A stretch of 64,000 nucleotides of DNA, taken from NCBI GenBank assembly GCA_963714095.1, contig OY970230.1, forward strand, positions 388,740 through 452,739, written 5' to 3'. The notes under the pieces were generated by a model. The model was not told the origin of the DNA. It worked only from the letters and a program-made list of their open reading frames with translations, and searched no databases. The position numbers and the translations under genes were made by a program. Origin of the DNA: Candidatus Gottesmanbacteria bacterium. Its GTDB lineage: Bacteria; Patescibacteriota; Microgenomatia; UBA10105; UBA927. Below are positions 45,897 to 60,901 of the stretch, in pieces. Every line of letters starts with the position of its first letter. Position 1 is the stretch's first letter.

Positions 45897-48029
45897 TTAT
45901 CTATTTACTTCCCCCGGAGAGCGGGCGCGGCCGGATGTTTCGATGATTTTTTCCTGGATATTTCGGGGCACTTCTTCGTAGTGGGACGGCTCCATGTAAT
46001 ACGTGGCGCGGCCTTTGGACATACTGCGCAGTGTTGTTGCGTAGCCGGAAAGCTCCGCGAGAGGCACCATAGCCAAAATAACCGTTACAAAGCCCCGTTT
46101 TGTGGTTCCGAGAATTTGGGAACGTTTGGCGCCGAGGTCTCCGATCACATCTCCCATAAATTCGTCGGGAGTCGTCACCTCAACCTTCATGATCGGCTCT
46201 AAGATAGTGGCCTGCGCTTGCTTAACTGCATTTTGCAACGCCATGGAACCTGCGATTTTGAATGCCATTTCATTTGAGTCAACTTCATGATAGGTTCCGT
46301 CATAGAGGTTTACCTGCATGTCAACCAAGGGATACCCTGCAATGACGCCGTTTTCCATAGCTTCGTGAATACCCTTTTCAATAGGTGCAATAAATTCTTT
46401 CGGAATTGCTCCGCCTTTAATATCATTCACGAATTCATACCCTTCGCCGCGACCCTTGGGCTCAATGGTAATAAAACAGTGCCCGTATTGTCCGCGGCCA
46501 CCTGATTGACGGATATATTTCCCCTCTCCCTCGGCTTTAACTTTGATCGTCTCTTTGTACGCAACCTGCGGCGCCCCAACATTACACTCCACTTTGAACT
46601 CGCGCTTCATACGGTCAACCAAAATCTCAAGATGGAGCTCTCCCATACCCCAGATAATGGTCTGATTGGTTTCGAGATTGCTTTTAATTTTAAACGTCGG
46701 GTCTTCCTCAGAGAGCCGCTGAAGCGCATAGCCCATTTTTTCCTGGTCATTTTTCGTCTTGGGCTCGATGGCAAGCGAAATGACCGGTTCAGGGAACGTA
46801 ATTTTCTCAAGAATAATCGGGCTGTCTTTGTCACAAATCGTATCGCCGGTAATGGTATCTTTAAATCCCACGACTGCAACGATTTCTCCGGCATAGGCTT
46901 CTTTGATTTCCTCACGCTGGTTTGCATGCATCAGAAGCAGCCGCCCAACGCGCTCGGCAACACCTTTGGTTGAATTATATGCGTAGGAGCCGGACTGCAG
47001 GCGCCCGGAATAAATACGCACATAGGTAAGCTTTCCCACATGCGGATCAATCTGGATTTTGAATGCCAGGCCGCAGAATTTTTCTTCCTTCGTGCGTTTA
47101 CGCGTAATCTTTGCTTCTGTTTTCGGATCCGTACCGGCGACTGCAGGAAGATCAAGAGGGCTTGGTAAATAATCCACAACCGCATCAAGAAGCGGCTGGA
47201 CACCTTTATTCCGGAGGCTTGATCCCGCATAAATCGGAACGAGCTTATACCCGATGACGGCGCGCCGGAGTGCTGCTTTGAGCTCGTCAACACTTGGTAC
47301 TTCACCGTTCAAAAATTTTTCAAGCAACGCATCGTCGGTTTCACTGATCCGTTCGATAAGATCTGCACGCGACTTCTCGACGTCGTCTTTGAGTTCTGCC
47401 GGAACTTCAACTTCATCGGGGTGTGCTCCCAAATCGTCAGTTTTCCAGACATACGCTTTACGTGTTAAAAGTTCTACGATTCCTTTAAACGTATTTTCCC
47501 TACCAATCGGCACAACCATAACGGCACACCGGGCGCCCAACCGCTCTTCAATGGATTTAATTGTGGCGCGAAAATCCGCTCCCAATTTGTCCATTTTATT
47601 GATAAAACAAAGTCGCGGTACGGCGTATTTGTCTGCCTGATGCCACACAGTCTCCGACTGTGACTGCACGCCCTCTTCTGCGTCCAGTACGGTAATTCCT
47701 CCGTCGAGTACACGAAGCGACCGTTCGACTTCTGCAGTGAAATCAACATGTCCGGGGGTATCAATGATATTAAAGCGGAATCCTTTCCAAAAAGTGGTCG
47801 TAGCTGCGGAAACGATCGTAATGCCGCGTTCGCGCTCCTGTTCCATCCAGTCCATTTGCGTGGTGCCTTCATCGATATCGCCGATTTTGTAGCTGCGGCC
47901 GGTGTAATAGAGGATGCGCTCTGTGGTGGTAGTTTTGCCCGCGTCAATGTGCGCGATAATCCCGATGTTCCGGACTTTATCAAGCGGTACATCTCTCTGT
48001 TCTGTCGTAATAGTAGTAGGAGCTGCCAT
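45897..48029 (-). CDS. fusA: Elongation factor G
   Basis: [18 protein letters not shown]. 710 aa. Confidence 0.97.
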
Positions 48030-48040
48030 AGTGTGAAATC

Positions 48041-48068
48041 AAAAAAAACTGTTCCGCCTGTGGAACAG
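48041..48068 (-). terminator. Rho-independent terminator 12 nt upstream of the fusA ATG (CTGTTCC-acaggc-GGAACAG + T8)
   Basis: Read directly from the sequence. Confidence 0.7.
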
Positions 48069-48087
48069 CCGTGTTTCATACGAGGAT

Positions 48088-48116
48088 ATTGTACTAAAAA
48101 ATCCCTCGGGTGTCTA
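48088..48116 (-). promoter_or_regulatory. Sigma70-like promoter (TAGACA-17-TACAAT) upstream of the terminator. The -35 overlaps the stop codon of the preceding gene
   Basis: Minus strand gTAGACAcccgagggattttttagTACAATatcctcg. Confidence 0.45.
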
Positions 48117-48842
48117 CTGATGTCCCAATGCCTGACTGAGAATAGCATTGGCTTGAATAACGGGTTGAAGAATACTTTCCCTTTGTTCTTGATTCGGTAC
48201 TTTCACACCTTCCCGTAACTTTTGCTGTAAATTCTGAAAGATAGATTTTGTTCTATCAACAAAAACGGTGAACAAATCATGGTTCTTCCATAAAACATCC
48301 GCCGAAAAATTCCTCATGGCTAAATAATAATGCAGATAATGGCTACCCATATCCCCATATAATCGATCGGCATATATAAATCTGAATGGGTTCCCTGACT
48401 CATTGCTGTATAGGTCATACGTGCGCATCTTAAATTCTTCCATTTTGTTGGGCCCTGTATGTGCTGAAGCAACGAATAACAACTTCGGACGTTCACTATC
48501 CCCCATCCCCAGGAAAATATGTTCTTGAGAATCTTCAGGTCTAAAATTTGTGATATCAATGAGGTCTTGGTGTTCCGGGAGATAATAATATTGGCTAATC
48601 AATCGTGCTATCGCGGGAGTTTCATATATTTTCTGGCTATATCCACCATATAGCATAACAGCTTCTTTATATTTTTCTGGAACCTGAATATTCAAAATCT
48701 CATGAAGCGGTTTCTCTCCATAACCGCTAACTGCAAGCATTGCCTGCGCTGCTCCTACGATATCTGATGGATTTTCGTGAATACTGGACATACAAATTTC
48801 GGCAAGACGCAGTATTATAACAATCAATTCTTGGATTTGCAA
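48114..48842 (-). CDS. Hypothetical protein (242 aa)
   Basis: ORF only; no recognised motifs. Confidence 0.45.
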   Translation of the reverse strand: MQIQELIVIILRLAEICMSSIHENPSDIVGAAQAMLAVSGYGEKPLHEILNIQVPEKYKEAVMLYGGYSQKIYETPAIARLISQYYYLPEHQDLIDITNFRPEDSQEHIFLGMGDSERPKLLFVASAHTGPNKMEEFKMRTYDLYSNESGNPFRFIYADRLYGDMGSHYLHYYLAMRNFSADVLWKNHDLFTVFVDRTKSIFQNLQQKLREGVKVPNQEQRESILQPVIQANAILSQALGHQ

Positions 48843-48845
48843 AAA

Positions 48846-49298
48846 TTAGCTTATTGTGACGCTCTTTGTTGCATGATACAGAAACAAAAAGCCATATGAT
48901 AGAGCCACGACGAAACCAACAGCCGTAAGCGGGCCCCATAAATAACCAAGGTGATGGAAGCCGAGGAGAAAGAGTAAATTCAGCGAGGAATTGGCGATCG
49001 GCCAGAAGATGACGATTGCGGTTAGGATAATCCGTTCGATAACGGCTTTATCATGAAATTTCCAGTGCCGCATAACGAATGCCGTTGCCTCCCGAAAAAG
49101 TAAAACAATCAGGTATATCCCGATTATTTCTGCCGGAATGCAGAGAAAATACAGAAGCGGATAGGTTTCCACCCACGGCGCAATCACCAAATTTGCTTCC
49201 CTTCCCCCCATCCACTTAATCGCCCAATAGGAAACGACATTATCGAAAACGAAGTAAAAACTAAGTAGGATCCACGAAACTTTTTTGGAAAGAAACAT
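48846..49298 (-). CDS. Small 4-transmembrane membrane protein, DUF5658-like (E-A-N motif)
   Basis: FDNVVSYWAIKWMGGREANLVIAPW. The family assignment is a recollection. Confidence 0.4.
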   Translation of the reverse strand: MFLSKKVSWILLSFYFVFDNVVSYWAIKWMGGREANLVIAPWVETYPLLYFLCIPAEIIGIYLIVLLFREATAFVMRHWKFHDKAVIERIILTAIVIFWPIANSSLNLLFLLGFHHLGYLWGPLTAVGFVVALSYGFLFLYHATKSVTIS

Positions 49299-49324
49299 AG
49301 TATTTATTGTACATCCCGAGATTC

Positions 49325-49564
49325 TTAGTCGCTCAAACGGACTTCATGTGTTTCACCTGTTAACTCATCATCTGGGGGAAAAACAGTGACGGTAACTTTT
49401 TCGTGGCGTTGTAATCTCTCCACTACCCGTCCCAATAATGAAGCCACATCAAAAAATCTCGGATGGGAAACCCGTGCGTCCGGTGGCAACATACCACCGC
49501 CATCGTGTTGCTCTACCAATACTCCGGTAACTCGTTTTTGTGCCGGACGATCTTCTGCATTCAT
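49325..49564 (-). CDS. Hypothetical small protein (79 aa), uncertain
   Basis: ORF with TATAAT 6 nt upstream of the ATG and no SD. Confidence 0.3.
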   Translation of the reverse strand: MNAEDRPAQKRVTGVLVEQHDGGGMLPPDARVSHPRFFDVASLLGRVVERLQRHEKVTVTVFPPDDELTGETHEVRLSD

Positions 49565-49635
49565 TGCGTTATTATAGCCATCCAGGCGCTTTTGTCGAGA
49601 GGAAAACGTGTGTCTACCGATTATATTTGTTTAGG

Positions 49636-50610
49636 TTAATTTGCAAAATCCTGGGTAATCATGAGTCCCCACGTATCGGTCGAGATAATACCTATCCCAA
49701 CGCGATGGAAGGCGGGATCAAGAATATTTGCACGGTGACCGGGACTGTTCATGAGACCCTGGTGGGCCGTGGCAAGATCCGGCGCGTAAGCGATATTTTC
49801 CCCGGCAACCGTAAAGGCTATCCCTGCATTTTGGAGCCGGTCCCCCGGCGACTGTCCCTCCGGATTTATGTGGGAAAAATAGCGGCGCTCAAACATATCC
49901 TTGCTGTGAGCGCGGGCAACGGCAGTCATCGCATCATCAACTATCAGCTTTCCGACTCCGACTTTGGCCCGTTCCGCATTCACCAGGTCTAGCATTTTCT
50001 CTTCGTCAGCTGAATCCGTTTTTAACTCACTCTCCGTGGGATAGACGGGAAGGGAAATCCGCTCAGTGGAATCCGGCTCCACCGTAATAAACTTGACTAC
50101 CTGCTGGCCGGCATCACTGATCGTCGAATCAACGGGGCCGCCGTACTTCACGGCTTCGGTTGCCAAAAAATTTCCGATCACGGAATTCTGCACGTCTATC
50201 TTAATCGTGCCACGCAGCGGTAATGCTAAAATAACCAGAAGAAAAAACGTGACGATAACGATGCCGTTAAAAAGCGATACAACCAAACCCAACCATTTAT
50301 TGAGTTTTGAGGATATGACTCTCTTTGGGATGCGGACGAGAATCAGCAGCACCAATTCCGAAAGCAATGCCTGCGCTATAAAGGCAACGATGATGTATCC
50401 CAACACCTCCGTCCAGATTGCGGGTATGCCGAATTTCAGCGAGAGGAAGTCGCCAACCGGCCCATGAAATTTAATGGAAAGCCAGAGGGAAATAAGAAAC
50501 GTCACAAGGCTCAAACCCAAATCCGCGAACCCCGCGCTCCATCCCTGAAGCGCGTAATAGACGACAACAACAATGACAGTCCAGTCAATCCAGTTGAAGT
50601 TGTGAAGCAT
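49636..50610 (-). CDS. CvpA-family membrane domain fused to a C-terminal CAP/SCP (YkwD-like) domain
   Basis: 4-transmembrane CvpA-like N-terminus. C-terminal LDLVNAER...GENIAY...HQGLMNSPGHRANIL...GIGI matches CAP domain motifs. Confidence 0.65.
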   Translation of the reverse strand: MLHNFNWIDWTVIVVVVYYALQGWSAGFADLGLSLVTFLISLWLSIKFHGPVGDFLSLKFGIPAIWTEVLGYIIVAFIAQALLSELVLLILVRIPKRVISSKLNKWLGLVVSLFNGIVIVTFFLLVILALPLRGTIKIDVQNSVIGNFLATEAVKYGGPVDSTISDAGQQVVKFITVEPDSTERISLPVYPTESELKTDSADEEKMLDLVNAERAKVGVGKLIVDDAMTAVARAHSKDMFERRYFSHINPEGQSPGDRLQNAGIAFTVAGENIAYAPDLATAHQGLMNSPGHRANILDPAFHRVGIGIISTDTWGLMITQDFAN

Positions 50611-50636
50611 AAAATATAGTATAGGTATTGTAGCAC

Positions 50637-52181
50637 ATGATCATTCTTCTCTTATTTGCGTTCCTCGCCGGTATTATTACCATTCTCTCCCCATGCATCC
50701 TGCCGGTATTGCCGATTGTGTTAAGCGGAACGCTTACCGGAGGAAAACGCCGGCCGCTGAGCATAGTCATCGGATTTATTTTCAGCTTTACATTTTTTAC
50801 ATTATTTCTCTCAATCATTGTCCGTGCAACGGGACTTCCGGCTGACACGTTGCGGTTTATTGCAATCCTCATTATCGGCGTCTTCGGCGTAAGCTTCCTT
50901 ATTCCGAAATTCCAACTATGGACGGAGAAAATATTTTCAAAAATTGCAATCGCCCCGCGCACGTCAAACGGATTTCTTATAGGGATGAGTCTTGGACTCG
51001 TCTGGGCACCTTGCGTCGGTCCGATTTTAGCTTCTGTCATCGCCCTTGCAGCTTCAGGCACGGTAACAAGTACCACATTTTTTATCACGCTTGCGTATTC
51101 CGTTGGCACCGCGATTCCGATGCTTATTATCCTGTACTCCGGCCGGCGTCTGGTACAAAAAATTCCCAATCCGCTGCGGCTGCAGCAACTATTCGGCGTT
51201 CTTATGATCGGTATTGCCATTGCCATGTATCTTAACCTGGACCGGAAATTCCAAACATATATTCTTACGGTATTCCCAAACTACGGAACGGGGCTCACGA
51301 AAATCGAAACCATTCCGGTTGTCATAAATGCATTACAAAGCATACAAAAGAAACAGGCGGCAATTGGAAACGCGCCCGATTTTACAGGAGGGCAGCAATG
51401 GTTTAATACACCTGCTGGCAAACCATTAACAATGTCTGAACTTCGGGGCAAAGTGATCATGGTCGACTTCTGGACGTATACCTGTATCAACTGCATCCGC
51501 ACGTTGCCGTATACGAAAGCCTGGTGGAATAAATACAAGGATAAAGGATTTGTACTCATCGGCGTCCATACGCCGGAGTTTGAATTTGAAAAAGATGCAA
51601 CAAATGTTGGGATTGCCATTAAAGATTTCGGTATCACCTATCCCGTGGTGCAGGACAATAATTATGCAATTTGGAATGCATACGGCAACCAATATTGGCC
51701 GGCGGATTATCTCATCGATAAAACCGGAAAAATTGTTGATACCCATTTCGGCGAAGGCGACTATGATGTAACGGAAAAGAAGATTCAAACTTTATTGAAA
51801 ATTTCAATGCCAATAAATAATCCTGCGTATACGGTGAACACCAACACGCCGGAAACATATCTGGGAACCAACCGCGGAGATTACTCTCAAATTTCTACAA
51901 CCGGCTCCTGGAATAAATCACCTGAGTATGCCGCGCCTTCCCAGGGAGCGACGCTTACTTTTCCGTTTGACGCAACAGACGTATATCTCGTCATGCGGCC
52001 GAAAATAGAGGGTACACCCGGAAATGTCGGTGTATATCTTGACGGGAAATTAACCACTACCGTGACTGTTGATTCGGACAAACTGTATCAACTTATCCAA
52101 CTTCCGAGTGAAGGTCAACACGTCTTACAATTAAAATTTTTGGATTCCAATCTCGAACTCTACGCGTTTACATTTGGATGA
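50637..52181 (+). CDS. Thiol:disulfide interchange protein. CcdA/DsbD-like transmembrane domain fused to a TlpA/ResA-like thioredoxin domain and an unknown C-terminal beta-rich domain
   Basis: Transmembrane Cys motifs SPCILP and APCVGP. Thioredoxin motif FWTYTCINC. Confidence 0.75.
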   Translation: MIILLLFAFLAGIITILSPCILPVLPIVLSGTLTGGKRRPLSIVIGFIFSFTFFTLFLSIIVRATGLPADTLRFIAILIIGVFGVSFLIPKFQLWTEKIFSKIAIAPRTSNGFLIGMSLGLVWAPCVGPILASVIALAASGTVTSTTFFITLAYSVGTAIPMLIILYSGRRLVQKIPNPLRLQQLFGVLMIGIAIAMYLNLDRKFQTYILTVFPNYGTGLTKIETIPVVINALQSIQKKQAAIGNAPDFTGGQQWFNTPAGKPLTMSELRGKVIMVDFWTYTCINCIRTLPYTKAWWNKYKDKGFVLIGVHTPEFEFEKDATNVGIAIKDFGITYPVVQDNNYAIWNAYGNQYWPADYLIDKTGKIVDTHFGEGDYDVTEKKIQTLLKISMPINNPAYTVNTNTPETYLGTNRGDYSQISTTGSWNKSPEYAAPSQGATLTFPFDATDVYLVMRPKIEGTPGNVGVYLDGKLTTTVTVDSDKLYQLIQLPSEGQHVLQLKFLDSNLELYAFTFG

Positions 52182-52187
52182 GGAGTT

Positions 52188-52661
52188 TTACCACTTAAAA
52201 TGGGCGAAGGCGCGGTTGGCGTCGGCCATACGCTGAATGGTATCACGTTTCTTAATCGCTTCTCCCTGGCCCTTGGACGCTTCCATCAGTTCTACCGCTA
52301 ACTTTTCGGCAAACGTATGGAATTCGCGGTTACTTCGTTTATTGGCAAACTGCACGATCCATCGCATGGCCAGTGCCATCCTACGGTCTCCTCGAACTTC
52401 AGTTGGTACCTGATAGGATGCACCACCAACGCGGCGGGCCTTGACTTCCATCTTGGGACCTACCGTATTCATAGCAAGCTCAAATACCTTAATCGGATCC
52501 TCGCCTTTTTCTTTGATAATATCGAGTGCTTTATAGACTTCCGTCTGCGCTGCGTGTTTTTTGCCGCTGCGCATCACCCGGTTAATAAATCGGGTCAGCA
52601 ATCTGTTCCCGTAGACGGGATCAGCTTCAGGAATAATTCTTACAACTCTTCCGCTTCTCAT
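52188..52661 (-). CDS. rpsG: 30S ribosomal protein S7
   Basis: Typical S7 sequence. Confidence 0.95.
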   Translation of the reverse strand: MRSGRVVRIIPEADPVYGNRLLTRFINRVMRSGKKHAAQTEVYKALDIIKEKGEDPIKVFELAMNTVGPKMEVKARRVGGASYQVPTEVRGDRRMALAMRWIVQFANKRSNREFHTFAEKLAVELMEASKGQGEAIKKRDTIQRMADANRAFAHFKW

Positions 52662-52670
52662 AATTATTTT

Positions 52671-53108
52671 TTAACTCGCGGCTGCCGTTGACGGCCCAGG
52701 TCCGCCCGATTTGGCGCCGTACCGTGACCGTCCTTTTTTACGATTTACAACACCGCTGGAATCATATTTTCCGCGCACAATGTGATATTTTACACCGGGC
52801 AGATCGGGCACTCTCCCCCCACGGACCAACACAATTGCATGTTCTGTTAATTCATGTCCGATACCCGGAATATACGCGGTGACTTCCTGCTTATTTGACA
52901 ATCTCACGCGGGCAACTTTCCGCAGTGCCGAGTTCGGCTTTTTCGGCGTCATGGTTTTCACAAGAGTAACCACTCCCCGCTTAAACGGCGCCGGCACCTG
53001 ACTCGTAATCCGGTCTTTTGCATTAAAAAACTTACGGAGTGCCGTCGCTTTGATTTTTTTCGACTTATGGTGACGCCCGTATTTAACTAATTGGTTTATT
53101 GTTGGCAT
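52671..53108 (-). CDS. rpsL: 30S ribosomal protein S12 (extended C-terminus)
   Basis: MPTINQLV...[11 protein letters not shown]...[13 protein letters not shown]. Confidence 0.95.
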
Positions 53109-60370: not shown

Positions 60371-60901
60371 TTATTCCTGAGGAAATTTCTCGCCGCCGTA
60401 ACTAGAAGGATCACTGCTAAATTTCCAGTATTGCGTGCCTTCAAATAACATACTTGGATATGAATCATTTTTTAATGTACCAAAAAATAGATAATAGCGA
60501 GTCCTAACCCATGGTTGTTTAAGAATATTATTTTTCCGACCAACCTCTTTTGTGAATCCATTCTGATCACATTTGTTTGAGATTACTATTTCAGACGTCG
60601 TTGTCAGTGTTAAATTATCATCTTTGATTTCCCAAGTTCCTAACTCCTCTTTTTCTTCAATTTGGCAACTCATTTGATTAGGATAAAAATGAAATTTACC
60701 ATCTGAGTAAAAGTTATACCTGTCAGCCCATCCTGAAGCCATACCTCCGCTTGCTTGCCAAATACCAACTAACGTAGCTTTATCAGCTTTTGAAAAAATT
60801 CCAGATATACTCGCATTACGGACTCCAATACAATATCCCAATAGTCCTCCGAGAACAAATAATGCAATAGATAATAAATATTTATTTGTGTTTTTCTTCA
60901 T
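60371..60901 (-). CDS. Hypothetical membrane-anchored secreted protein (AT-rich gene)
   Basis: N-terminal transmembrane/signal anchor. No recognised domain. Confidence 0.45.
   Translation of the reverse strand: MKKNTNKYLLSIALFVLGGLLGYCIGVRNASISGIFSKADKATLVGIWQASGGMASGWADRYNFYSDGKFHFYPNQMSCQIEEKEELGTWEIKDDNLTLTTTSEIVISNKCDQNGFTKEVGRKNNILKQPWVRTRYYLFFGTLKNDSYPSMLFEGTQYWKFSSDPSSYGGEKFPQE

Follow-up and report, generated by a model that had tools for sequence, protein, structure and literature searches.

A split str operon in a Gottesmanbacteria genome

In a 64,000-nucleotide stretch of a Candidatus Gottesmanbacteria genome (contig OY970230.1, positions 388,740 to 452,739 of the forward strand; hereafter the window, numbered from its first letter), the str operon genes rpsG and fusA, which encode ribosomal protein S7 and elongation factor G (EF-G), are separated by 4,158 bp from the rpsG stop to the fusA start, and five open reading frames (ORFs) lie between them. 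Reading from rpsG towards fusA, these are a DipZ-type CcdA–thioredoxin fusion protein, a fusion of a CvpA and a CAP domain (CvpA-CAP), a 79-amino-acid (aa) ORF (orf79), a multi-pass membrane protein of 150 aa (TM150) and a 225-aa ORF (orf225). An earlier note on this DNA had taken the five for one envelope thiol-redox and secretion module inserted into an otherwise canonical operon. We consider it likely instead that the junction is a zone of variable gene content, old and shared at the level of the lineage, which separates two transcription units, a product of gene-order drift with no new insertion of a redox module. According to this interpretation, the str operon of Gottesmanbacteria would have been split into rpoB-rpoC-rpsL-rpsG and fusA-tuf-S10, the space between the two would be an old permissive zone in which non-ribosomal genes are gained, lost and replaced singly, and the window would carry a reduced version of the gene set of the lineage, with DipZ, CvpA-CAP and TM150 as residents and orf79 and orf225 as newcomers.

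The two halves of the operon are otherwise orderly. On the minus strand, rpsG (52188-52661; Pfam Ribosomal_S7, E = 7e-54) is the final gene of an rpoB-rpoC-rpsL-rpsG run (rpsL at 52671-53108 in the gene map), while fusA (45897-48029, minus strand; identified from Pfam and the gene map) opens a fusA-tuf-rpsJ-rplC run that continues straight into the S10 genes. The distance between them lies well outside the tens to ~200 bp of canonical str adjacency. Four of the five intervening ORFs share the strand of rpsG and fusA, and DipZ lies on the opposite strand; the separation itself, and the coordinates and strands of the ORFs, are as the earlier note had described them. Its rpsG is 91–93% identical to those of Candidatus Gottesmanbacteria metagenome-assembled genomes. 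The same 4.9 kb occurs at 100% identity in one ENA contig and one Logan assembly, and at 99.98% identity, with one indel, in a second Logan assembly. As these three assemblies are independent of one another and have an identical gene arrangement, the split junction is not an assembly artefact.

Distance between rpsG and fusA across genomes

The synteny set comprised rpsG ± 10 kb from 80 species representatives and was searched by tblastn with rpoC, rpsL, rpsG, fusA, tuf, rpsJ and the five block proteins as queries (loci are cited below by number, as L001). Among 47 evaluable Microgenomates-like loci, rpsG and fusA are adjacent (≤ 200 bp) in nine, are 0.2–1 kb apart in six and > 1 kb apart in 22, and in a further 10 no fusA is found within ≥ 5 kb. 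Outside the Candidate Phyla Radiation (CPR), nearly all junctions are canonical: fusA lies ≤ 200 bp from rpsG in 16 of 21 evaluable loci, and four further loci carry a divergent EF-G-like gene directly downstream. Since so few loci of this CPR class have the two genes adjacent, a broken rpsG–fusA junction is the norm there and not a peculiarity of the window genome, and the split is gene-order drift of the kind expected in these genomes. We found no literature report of str operon disruption in CPR or of CvpA-CAP fusions.

Gene content of the junction in Gottesmanbacteria

Within the Gottesmanbacteria group, defined as loci with rpsG ≥ 70% identical, the gap measures 2.0–7.1 kb or larger and its gene content differs from species to species. 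Scored at the junction only, DipZ is present in seven species loci plus the window, and CvpA-CAP in five loci plus the window; counted over the 12 informative species representatives, the figures are eight for DipZ and five for CvpA-CAP. Other genes recur there as well: an HhH-GPD glycosylase (11 loci), a 119–140-aa protein (nine loci), a GSDH-like protein (six loci), a small membrane-anchored thioredoxin beside DipZ (six loci) and, in some, a MerR/TipAS regulator. The HhH-GPD, GSDH, small thioredoxin and 119–140-aa families were not found anywhere in the 64-kb window, from which the MerR/TipAS gene is also absent.

The same scoring finds DipZ at the junction without CvpA-CAP in L007, L010, L011, L013 and L014, and CvpA-CAP without DipZ in L001, L002, L004 and L084. 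Loci that have both genes always carry them as an adjacent, divergent pair (five of five arrangements: the window, L003, L005, L086/87 and L088/89), with a spacer of 26–66 bp and, in two of the five, the small thioredoxin gene between them. TM150 homologues lie between CvpA-CAP and fusA in L004, L084 and L086.

Gene orders at increasing distance from the window are informative. The locus whose CvpA-CAP is 78% identical runs from rpsG through a 119-aa gene, CvpA-CAP, a group of four genes that includes a TM150 homologue, and a DUF3800 gene to fusA, and it has no DipZ. At 59% identity the order is rpsG, GSDH, a 126-aa gene, DipZ (opposite strand), CvpA-CAP, MGMT, a TM150 homologue, a 152-aa gene and fusA. 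At 52% identity (L088/L089, 5745-16523), rpsG is followed by genes, HhH-GPD, GSDH, further genes, DipZ with the thioredoxin (opposite strand), CvpA-CAP and MGMT, and then by DsbA (Thioredoxin_4/DSBA), VKOR, a rhodanese and a second DsbD_TM gene. A Crp-type regulator is also present in this zone, and the nearest 8 kb contain no fusA; this locus holds a fuller extracytoplasmic thiol-redox set than the window does.

As the relative at 59% CvpA-CAP identity shows the same order and the one at 52% the same divergent DipZ/CvpA-CAP pair downstream of rpsG, we read the order of the window (DipZ on the opposite strand, CvpA-CAP, TM150 and fusA, with other genes interspersed) as inherited, and the window as having lost the left-hand junction genes. 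The earlier note had held that finding the same block across the whole phylum would overturn an insertion, and the synteny comparison that it proposed bears this out in part: the core of DipZ, CvpA-CAP and TM150 appears ancestral to the Gottesmanbacteria lineage, because the three genes are found at the junction in relatives down to 52–67% protein identity, but it is not phylum-wide. No integrase or transposase, no flanking repeats and no nearby tRNA gene were found at the block, which does not qualify as a genomic island; only orf79 and orf225 are compositionally atypical.

Levybacteria-type loci hold a different gene here. In 14 of them (L016, L018, L019, L021, L022, L027, L028, L034, L035, L041, L044, L047, L049 and L052), rpsG is closely followed by an opposite-strand gene for a cyclophilin-type peptidyl-prolyl isomerase of ~200 aa, apparently another resident of this junction that is specific to its lineage.

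The fusA leader

The 84 bp between orf225 and fusA contain, in order, a promoter-like motif TAGACA-17-TACAAT that follows a T-run (48088-48116, minus strand), a GC-rich hairpin with a 9-bp stem (GGCTGTTCC...GGAACAGTT; 48037-48070, minus strand) and a T8 tract that stops ~10 nt short of the fusA ATG. All 12 Gottesmanbacteria loci examined share the motif (the window, L001-L005, L009, L010, L013, L014, L084 and L086; alignments A1 and A3), the upstream genes being unrelated. A hairpin with a U-run is likewise present in 12 of 12, built from at least five different stem sequences, and its U-run ends 10–25 nt before the fusA ATG. From L010, where motif and hairpin are present although the upstream gene is divergent from fusA, it would follow that the promoter–hairpin–U-run element is part of the fusA leader and more than a terminator for the upstream gene. 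Consensus and conservation together suggest that fusA-tuf-S10 is probably an independent transcription unit with its own promoter, and with such a unit there would be no need to keep rpsG and fusA adjacent.

A further possibility is that this leader acts as a lineage-wide attenuator of the fused fusA-tuf-S10 unit. Transcripts might pass beyond the hairpin and U8 by attenuation, or the element could be a 5′ stabiliser or a ribosome-loading U-tract. No Rfam family reached its gathering threshold anywhere in the window, and 47900-52300 gave no match even with E values up to 1 allowed.

Similar features were noted elsewhere. By eye, a hairpin with a T-run also lies upstream of fusA in other Microgenomates (L026, L029, L038 and L042). 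A near copy of the fusA motif (ATTTTTTGGTACATTA, two mismatches) lies at 60473-60488 on the minus strand, inside the 176-aa ORF that precedes rpoB. It may serve rpoB as an internal promoter; four such matches occur in the window, a number not clearly above chance.

Promoter-like sites within the block

The 26-bp spacer between the divergent start codons of DipZ and CvpA-CAP (50611-50636), to which the earlier note had rightly drawn attention, contains a −10-like box close to each start: TATACT precedes the ATG of CvpA-CAP by 7 nt, and TATTGT that of DipZ by 5 nt. A TACAAT or TAAAAT box lies 6–9 nt before the CvpA-CAP ATG in L003, L005, L086 and L088 also. In the window, orf79 is directly preceded by a near-consensus promoter-like site, TCGACA-16-TATAAT (49571-49598, minus strand), which agrees with the consensus at 11 of 12 positions and leaves 6 nt between its −10 box and the ATG, and TM150 by a TACAAT box 7 nt before its ATG. 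CvpA-CAP, orf79 and TM150 therefore each have a −10-like box 6–7 nt before the ATG, a leaderless-type spacing, which suggests that the block genes are expressed largely independently and not as one operon.

This spacing is not confined to the block: TAnnAT lies 5–8 nt before the start in 10 of 67 window genes, ~4–5 times commoner than at other upstream positions (examples are the starts at 1072, 9348, 9367, 15125, 20430, 24578, 49298 and 50610), suggesting that many transcription units here begin as leaderless or near-leaderless mRNAs. At the other end of the block, the convergent stop codons of DipZ and rpsG, within 52179-52190, are 6 bp apart (52182-52187), and a terminator scan found no terminator-like hairpin between them; mutual antisense read-through at rpsG/DipZ seems likely. 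In relatives, the spacing between DipZ and the convergent upstream gene ranges from 12 bp down to a 14-bp overlap.

The DipZ-type protein

The 514-aa ORF (50637-52181, plus strand) reads as a DipZ-type CcdA–thioredoxin fusion from its Pfam and PDB matches and the positions of its cysteines. Pfam matches are to DsbD_TM (5e-11), Redoxin (1e-13), Thioredoxin_8 (9.5e-8) and Thioredoxin_10 (6e-20), so that the DsbD and thioredoxin calls of the earlier note are sustained. The CcdA/DsbD membrane domain (PF02683) occupies residues 3-198, with a further match to CcdA 5VKV at 4e-14, and Thioredoxin_10 (PF17991) occupies residues 400-514. Over the thioredoxin domain the protein matches the soluble region of Mycobacterium tuberculosis DipZ (PDB 2HYX/5CYY) at E = 1e-53, and C283-I-N-C286 aligns with the CINC motif of 2HYX. 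There are only four cysteines, Cys20 and Cys126 in hydrophobic membrane segments and Cys283 and Cys286 in the thioredoxin fold, which is the set expected of a transmembrane thiol-disulfide relay. Homologues with 51–67% identity lie at the same junction in seven species representatives.

CcdA/DipZ-type proteins reduce exported cysteines, a role summarised in PMC3781833. By homology, electrons from cytoplasmic thioredoxin should pass via Cys20 and Cys126 to the protein's own extracytoplasmic CINC domain, and the exported domain would then keep envelope proteins reduced or repaired, as has been proposed for proteins of this type. Of the mechanistic statements that we make about the block, this predicted relay is the best supported.

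The CvpA-CAP fusion

In the 324-aa CvpA-CAP protein (49636-50610, minus strand), Pfam detects an N-terminal Colicin_V domain (8e-14) and a C-terminal CAP domain (2e-16), both as the earlier note had called them. The CvpA family match (PF02674, residues 8-150) scores 52.3 bits against a cut-off of 29.3, and the protein has several hydrophobic segments. The CAP domain lies above the cut-off of PF00188 (61.1 bits versus 21.1) and below that of YkwD TIGR02909 (122.7 bits versus 171; E = 8e-36). The protein contains no cysteine and so, on its predicted sequence, cannot be a disulfide substrate. This two-domain architecture is found in > 120 clusters of ~322 aa, annotated as 'CvpA family protein', and the clusters that bear an organism name are all from Gottesmanbacteria or the Patescibacteria group.

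Two more specific identities were rejected. Against the DalA model (NF052539) the protein scores 61 bits versus a cut-off of 200 (E = 1e-16), it has no lipoprotein signal and its N-terminus is the CvpA domain. Against the MarP family protease model (NF033740) it scores 24 bits versus 250, the match covering the membrane part only, and its C-terminus is the CAP domain.

The closest CvpA-CAP outside the species (80% identity; L091 2068-3045 and L092 1566-2543) lies away from rpsG and fusA and is not accompanied by DipZ. Its neighbours are a gene of > 685 aa without a Pfam match and a GT2 glycosyltransferase, and the CvpA-CAP gene has either moved or has paralogues.

TM150, orf79 and orf225

TM150 (48846-49298, minus strand) is known from hydropathy, which shows several hydrophobic segments, and from a family search, which places it among 61 homologous clusters whose named members come from Gottesmanbacteria or the Patescibacteria group. 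The earlier note had called it DUF5658-like, a call that does not hold at the Pfam gathering threshold (PF18902, 19 bits versus 25.2); weak matches to DUF5658 in 15 of 32 family members, the best at 8e-5, suggest that the family is only distantly related to it. A distant TM150 homologue (42% identity) in L094 (7001-8761) has unrelated surroundings, but there too an HhH-GPD glycosylase gene, of the family that recurs at the Gottesmanbacteria junction, is found ~0.7 kb away, separated from it by a single 239-aa gene. In the near-identical Logan assembly L083 (802-1253, equivalent to 48846-49298 of the window), a one-base indel splits the TM150 frame, and the gene call has 122 aa; the indel reflects either strain variation or an error in sequencing. 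Outside the block, rpoB and rpoC, both intact in the window, are broken into many short ORF calls in a 516-kb ENA contig (L081 12460-19623), which suggests indel errors in that assembly.

The status of orf79 (49325-49564, minus strand) is uncertain: no homologue was found, the closest loci included, and gene callers did not call it on identical public contigs. The 242-aa protein of the earlier note exists as an ORF, reaching upstream to 48842, but gene callers on identical public contigs start it at Met18, giving the 225 aa of orf225 (48114-48791, minus strand). Since hydropathy detects no hydrophobic segment other than the discarded N-terminal extension, the ORF probably encodes a 225-aa cytoplasmic protein without transmembrane segments. 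With DipZ, CvpA-CAP and TM150, three of the five products are membrane proteins, in keeping with the earlier description of most of them as membrane or secreted. The orf225 family is an orphan one of five proteins, the only full-length homologue being P0123, on a 958-bp contig without neighbouring genes.

GC content at third codon positions (GC3) is 0.36 in both orf79 and orf225, ~2 standard deviations below the window mean of 0.475 ± 0.054, and is typical for the window in DipZ (0.476) and TM150 (0.51). Unrelated genes occupy the slots of orf79 and orf225 in relatives, and no similarity was found that would make the two ORFs remnants of the genes at the same position there (MGMT, the 152-aa gene, a 256-aa gene and others). 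Both appear to be strain-specific newcomers. None of the block proteins is of a new kind: they comprise known families plus these two strain-specific ORFs.

Alternative explanations

That the block is a single 4-kb envelope thiol-redox and secretion module, recently inserted by horizontal transfer into a canonical str operon, is in our estimation highly improbable. The separation of rpsG and fusA, the predominance of membrane proteins and the low GC3 of orf79 and orf225 could all be taken as signs of such an event, but relatives as distant as 52% identity have the core genes at this junction, its content changes one gene at a time and not as a unit, DipZ and TM150 have native composition, there are no repeats, integrase or tRNA gene, and most of the class has a broken junction. 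The insertion view is thus largely refuted by synteny: with only 9 of 47 class loci adjacent and core genes at the junction in relatives, neither the discreteness of the insertion nor the otherwise canonical operon survives. The idea of one module is not supported either, as DipZ and CvpA-CAP occur separately, the CAP protein has no cysteine and several genes have promoter-like sites of their own. The redox flavour that the earlier note perceived does find some support in relatives, in the usual pairing of DipZ with a small thioredoxin and in the thiol-redox cluster of L088.

A narrower coupling is also conceivable, in which DipZ, CvpA-CAP and possibly TM150 form an envelope unit co-regulated from the shared 26-bp region, linking, for example, thiol-redox maintenance to a CvpA-anchored wall factor. 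We think this unlikely, despite the adjacent and divergent placement of the pair in all five arrangements where both are present and the accumulation of thiol-redox genes in this zone of L088. About five lineages have DipZ at the junction but no CvpA-CAP there, and about five the reverse; the CAP fusion lacks cysteine, the closest CvpA-CAP outside the species lies elsewhere without DipZ, and inherited synteny alone could explain the adjacency. Equally doubtful is the more specific proposal that the divergent pair, kept across deep Gottesmanbacteria divergence, is a functional couple in which the CvpA domain works with a transmembrane thiol-reductant pathway. A parallel may exist in M. tuberculosis, where the CvpA-domain protease MarP (Rv3671c) is encoded beside the thioredoxin-like CcsX (Rv3673c) and nth (Rv3674c), a grouping reminiscent of the HhH-GPD, thioredoxin and CvpA genes at the Gottesmanbacteria junction. 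Somewhat less probable again is that the ribosomal operon carries the four minus-strand genes along as passengers, which would be transcribed together with rpsG and/or fusA and so place envelope functions under growth-rate control. Such passengers would explain why four of the five genes share the rpsG/fusA strand, why no terminator follows rpsG and why, downstream of rpsG in L084, L001 and L004, the inserted genes are co-directional with it and spaced by 2 bp. They are harder to reconcile with the opposite-strand DipZ that stands between rpsG and the remaining genes, with the near-consensus promoter-like sites before CvpA-CAP, orf79, TM150 and fusA, and with the strong terminator-like hairpin between orf225 and fusA.

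The variable zone between two transcription units that we favour has points against it too. Ancestral presence and losses are deduced from presence and absence ordered by rpsG identity, and one CvpA-CAP (80% identity) sits in a different context. Read-through from rpsG, antisense across DipZ and into CvpA-CAP and fusA, is possible in the absence of a terminator after rpsG. In L084, the genes from rpsG to fusA all run in one direction with 2-bp spacings, which looks like co-transcription. Finally, a hairpin and U8 downstream of the putative fusA promoter should themselves terminate transcription.

Significance and comparison with known systems

As a caution, rpsG–fusA contiguity should not be assumed in CPR or Microgenomates genomes, and finding genes at that junction is no reason to infer a module or a recent insertion. 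The fusA motif and hairpin leader could show how elongation-factor and S10 genes are controlled in reduced genomes. The recurrent neighbourhood of DipZ, small thioredoxin and CvpA-CAP would mark extracytoplasmic thiol maintenance as a conserved Gottesmanbacteria trait and might give a clue to the function of the CvpA family; were the DipZ/CvpA-CAP couple real, it would provide the first mechanistic context for this poorly understood family.

Compared with the canonical str operon (rpsL-rpsG-fusA-tuf), the window retains gene order and strand, but its rpsG and fusA are 4.2 kb apart and apparently belong to separate units. In its hairpin and U-run after a promoter-like site, the fusA leader resembles an attenuator such as that of the Escherichia coli S10 leader; it matches no Rfam family, and any regulatory role would be putative. 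The DipZ-type protein shares with M. tuberculosis DipZ (Rv2874; PDB 2HYX and 5CYY), of the CcdA/DsbD/ScsB family of transmembrane reductant transporters, a three-part architecture, two membrane cysteines and an identical CINC motif. It differs in its CPR host and in its setting, since DipZ in relatives is operonic with a small membrane-anchored thioredoxin, a gene that the window lacks, and the classical role of CcdA/DipZ in cytochrome c maturation (PMC3781833) may not apply to it.

For the CvpA-CAP protein, the comparisons are with two different halves. DalA of Rhodobacter sphaeroides is a divisome-associated CAP lipoprotein with a reported role in cell division, whose purified form has been tested for non-covalent peptidoglycan binding (PMC10470522). 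The likeness to DalA and to bacterial YkwD proteins lies in the CAP domain, with all NCBIfam scores below cut-offs; the window protein would be anchored by its CvpA helices and not by lipid, and no outer membrane is known in its host. MarP of M. tuberculosis (Rv3671c) matches the other half, having an N-terminal multi-pass CvpA domain (PF02674) that bears a C-terminal soluble domain, which in the window is a YkwD-like CAP domain and not a serine protease. Judged by the topology of MarP, the fusion probably has its CAP domain on the extracytoplasmic side, and from that position outside the membrane, as the comparison with DalA suggests, the domain may bind or act on the cell wall.

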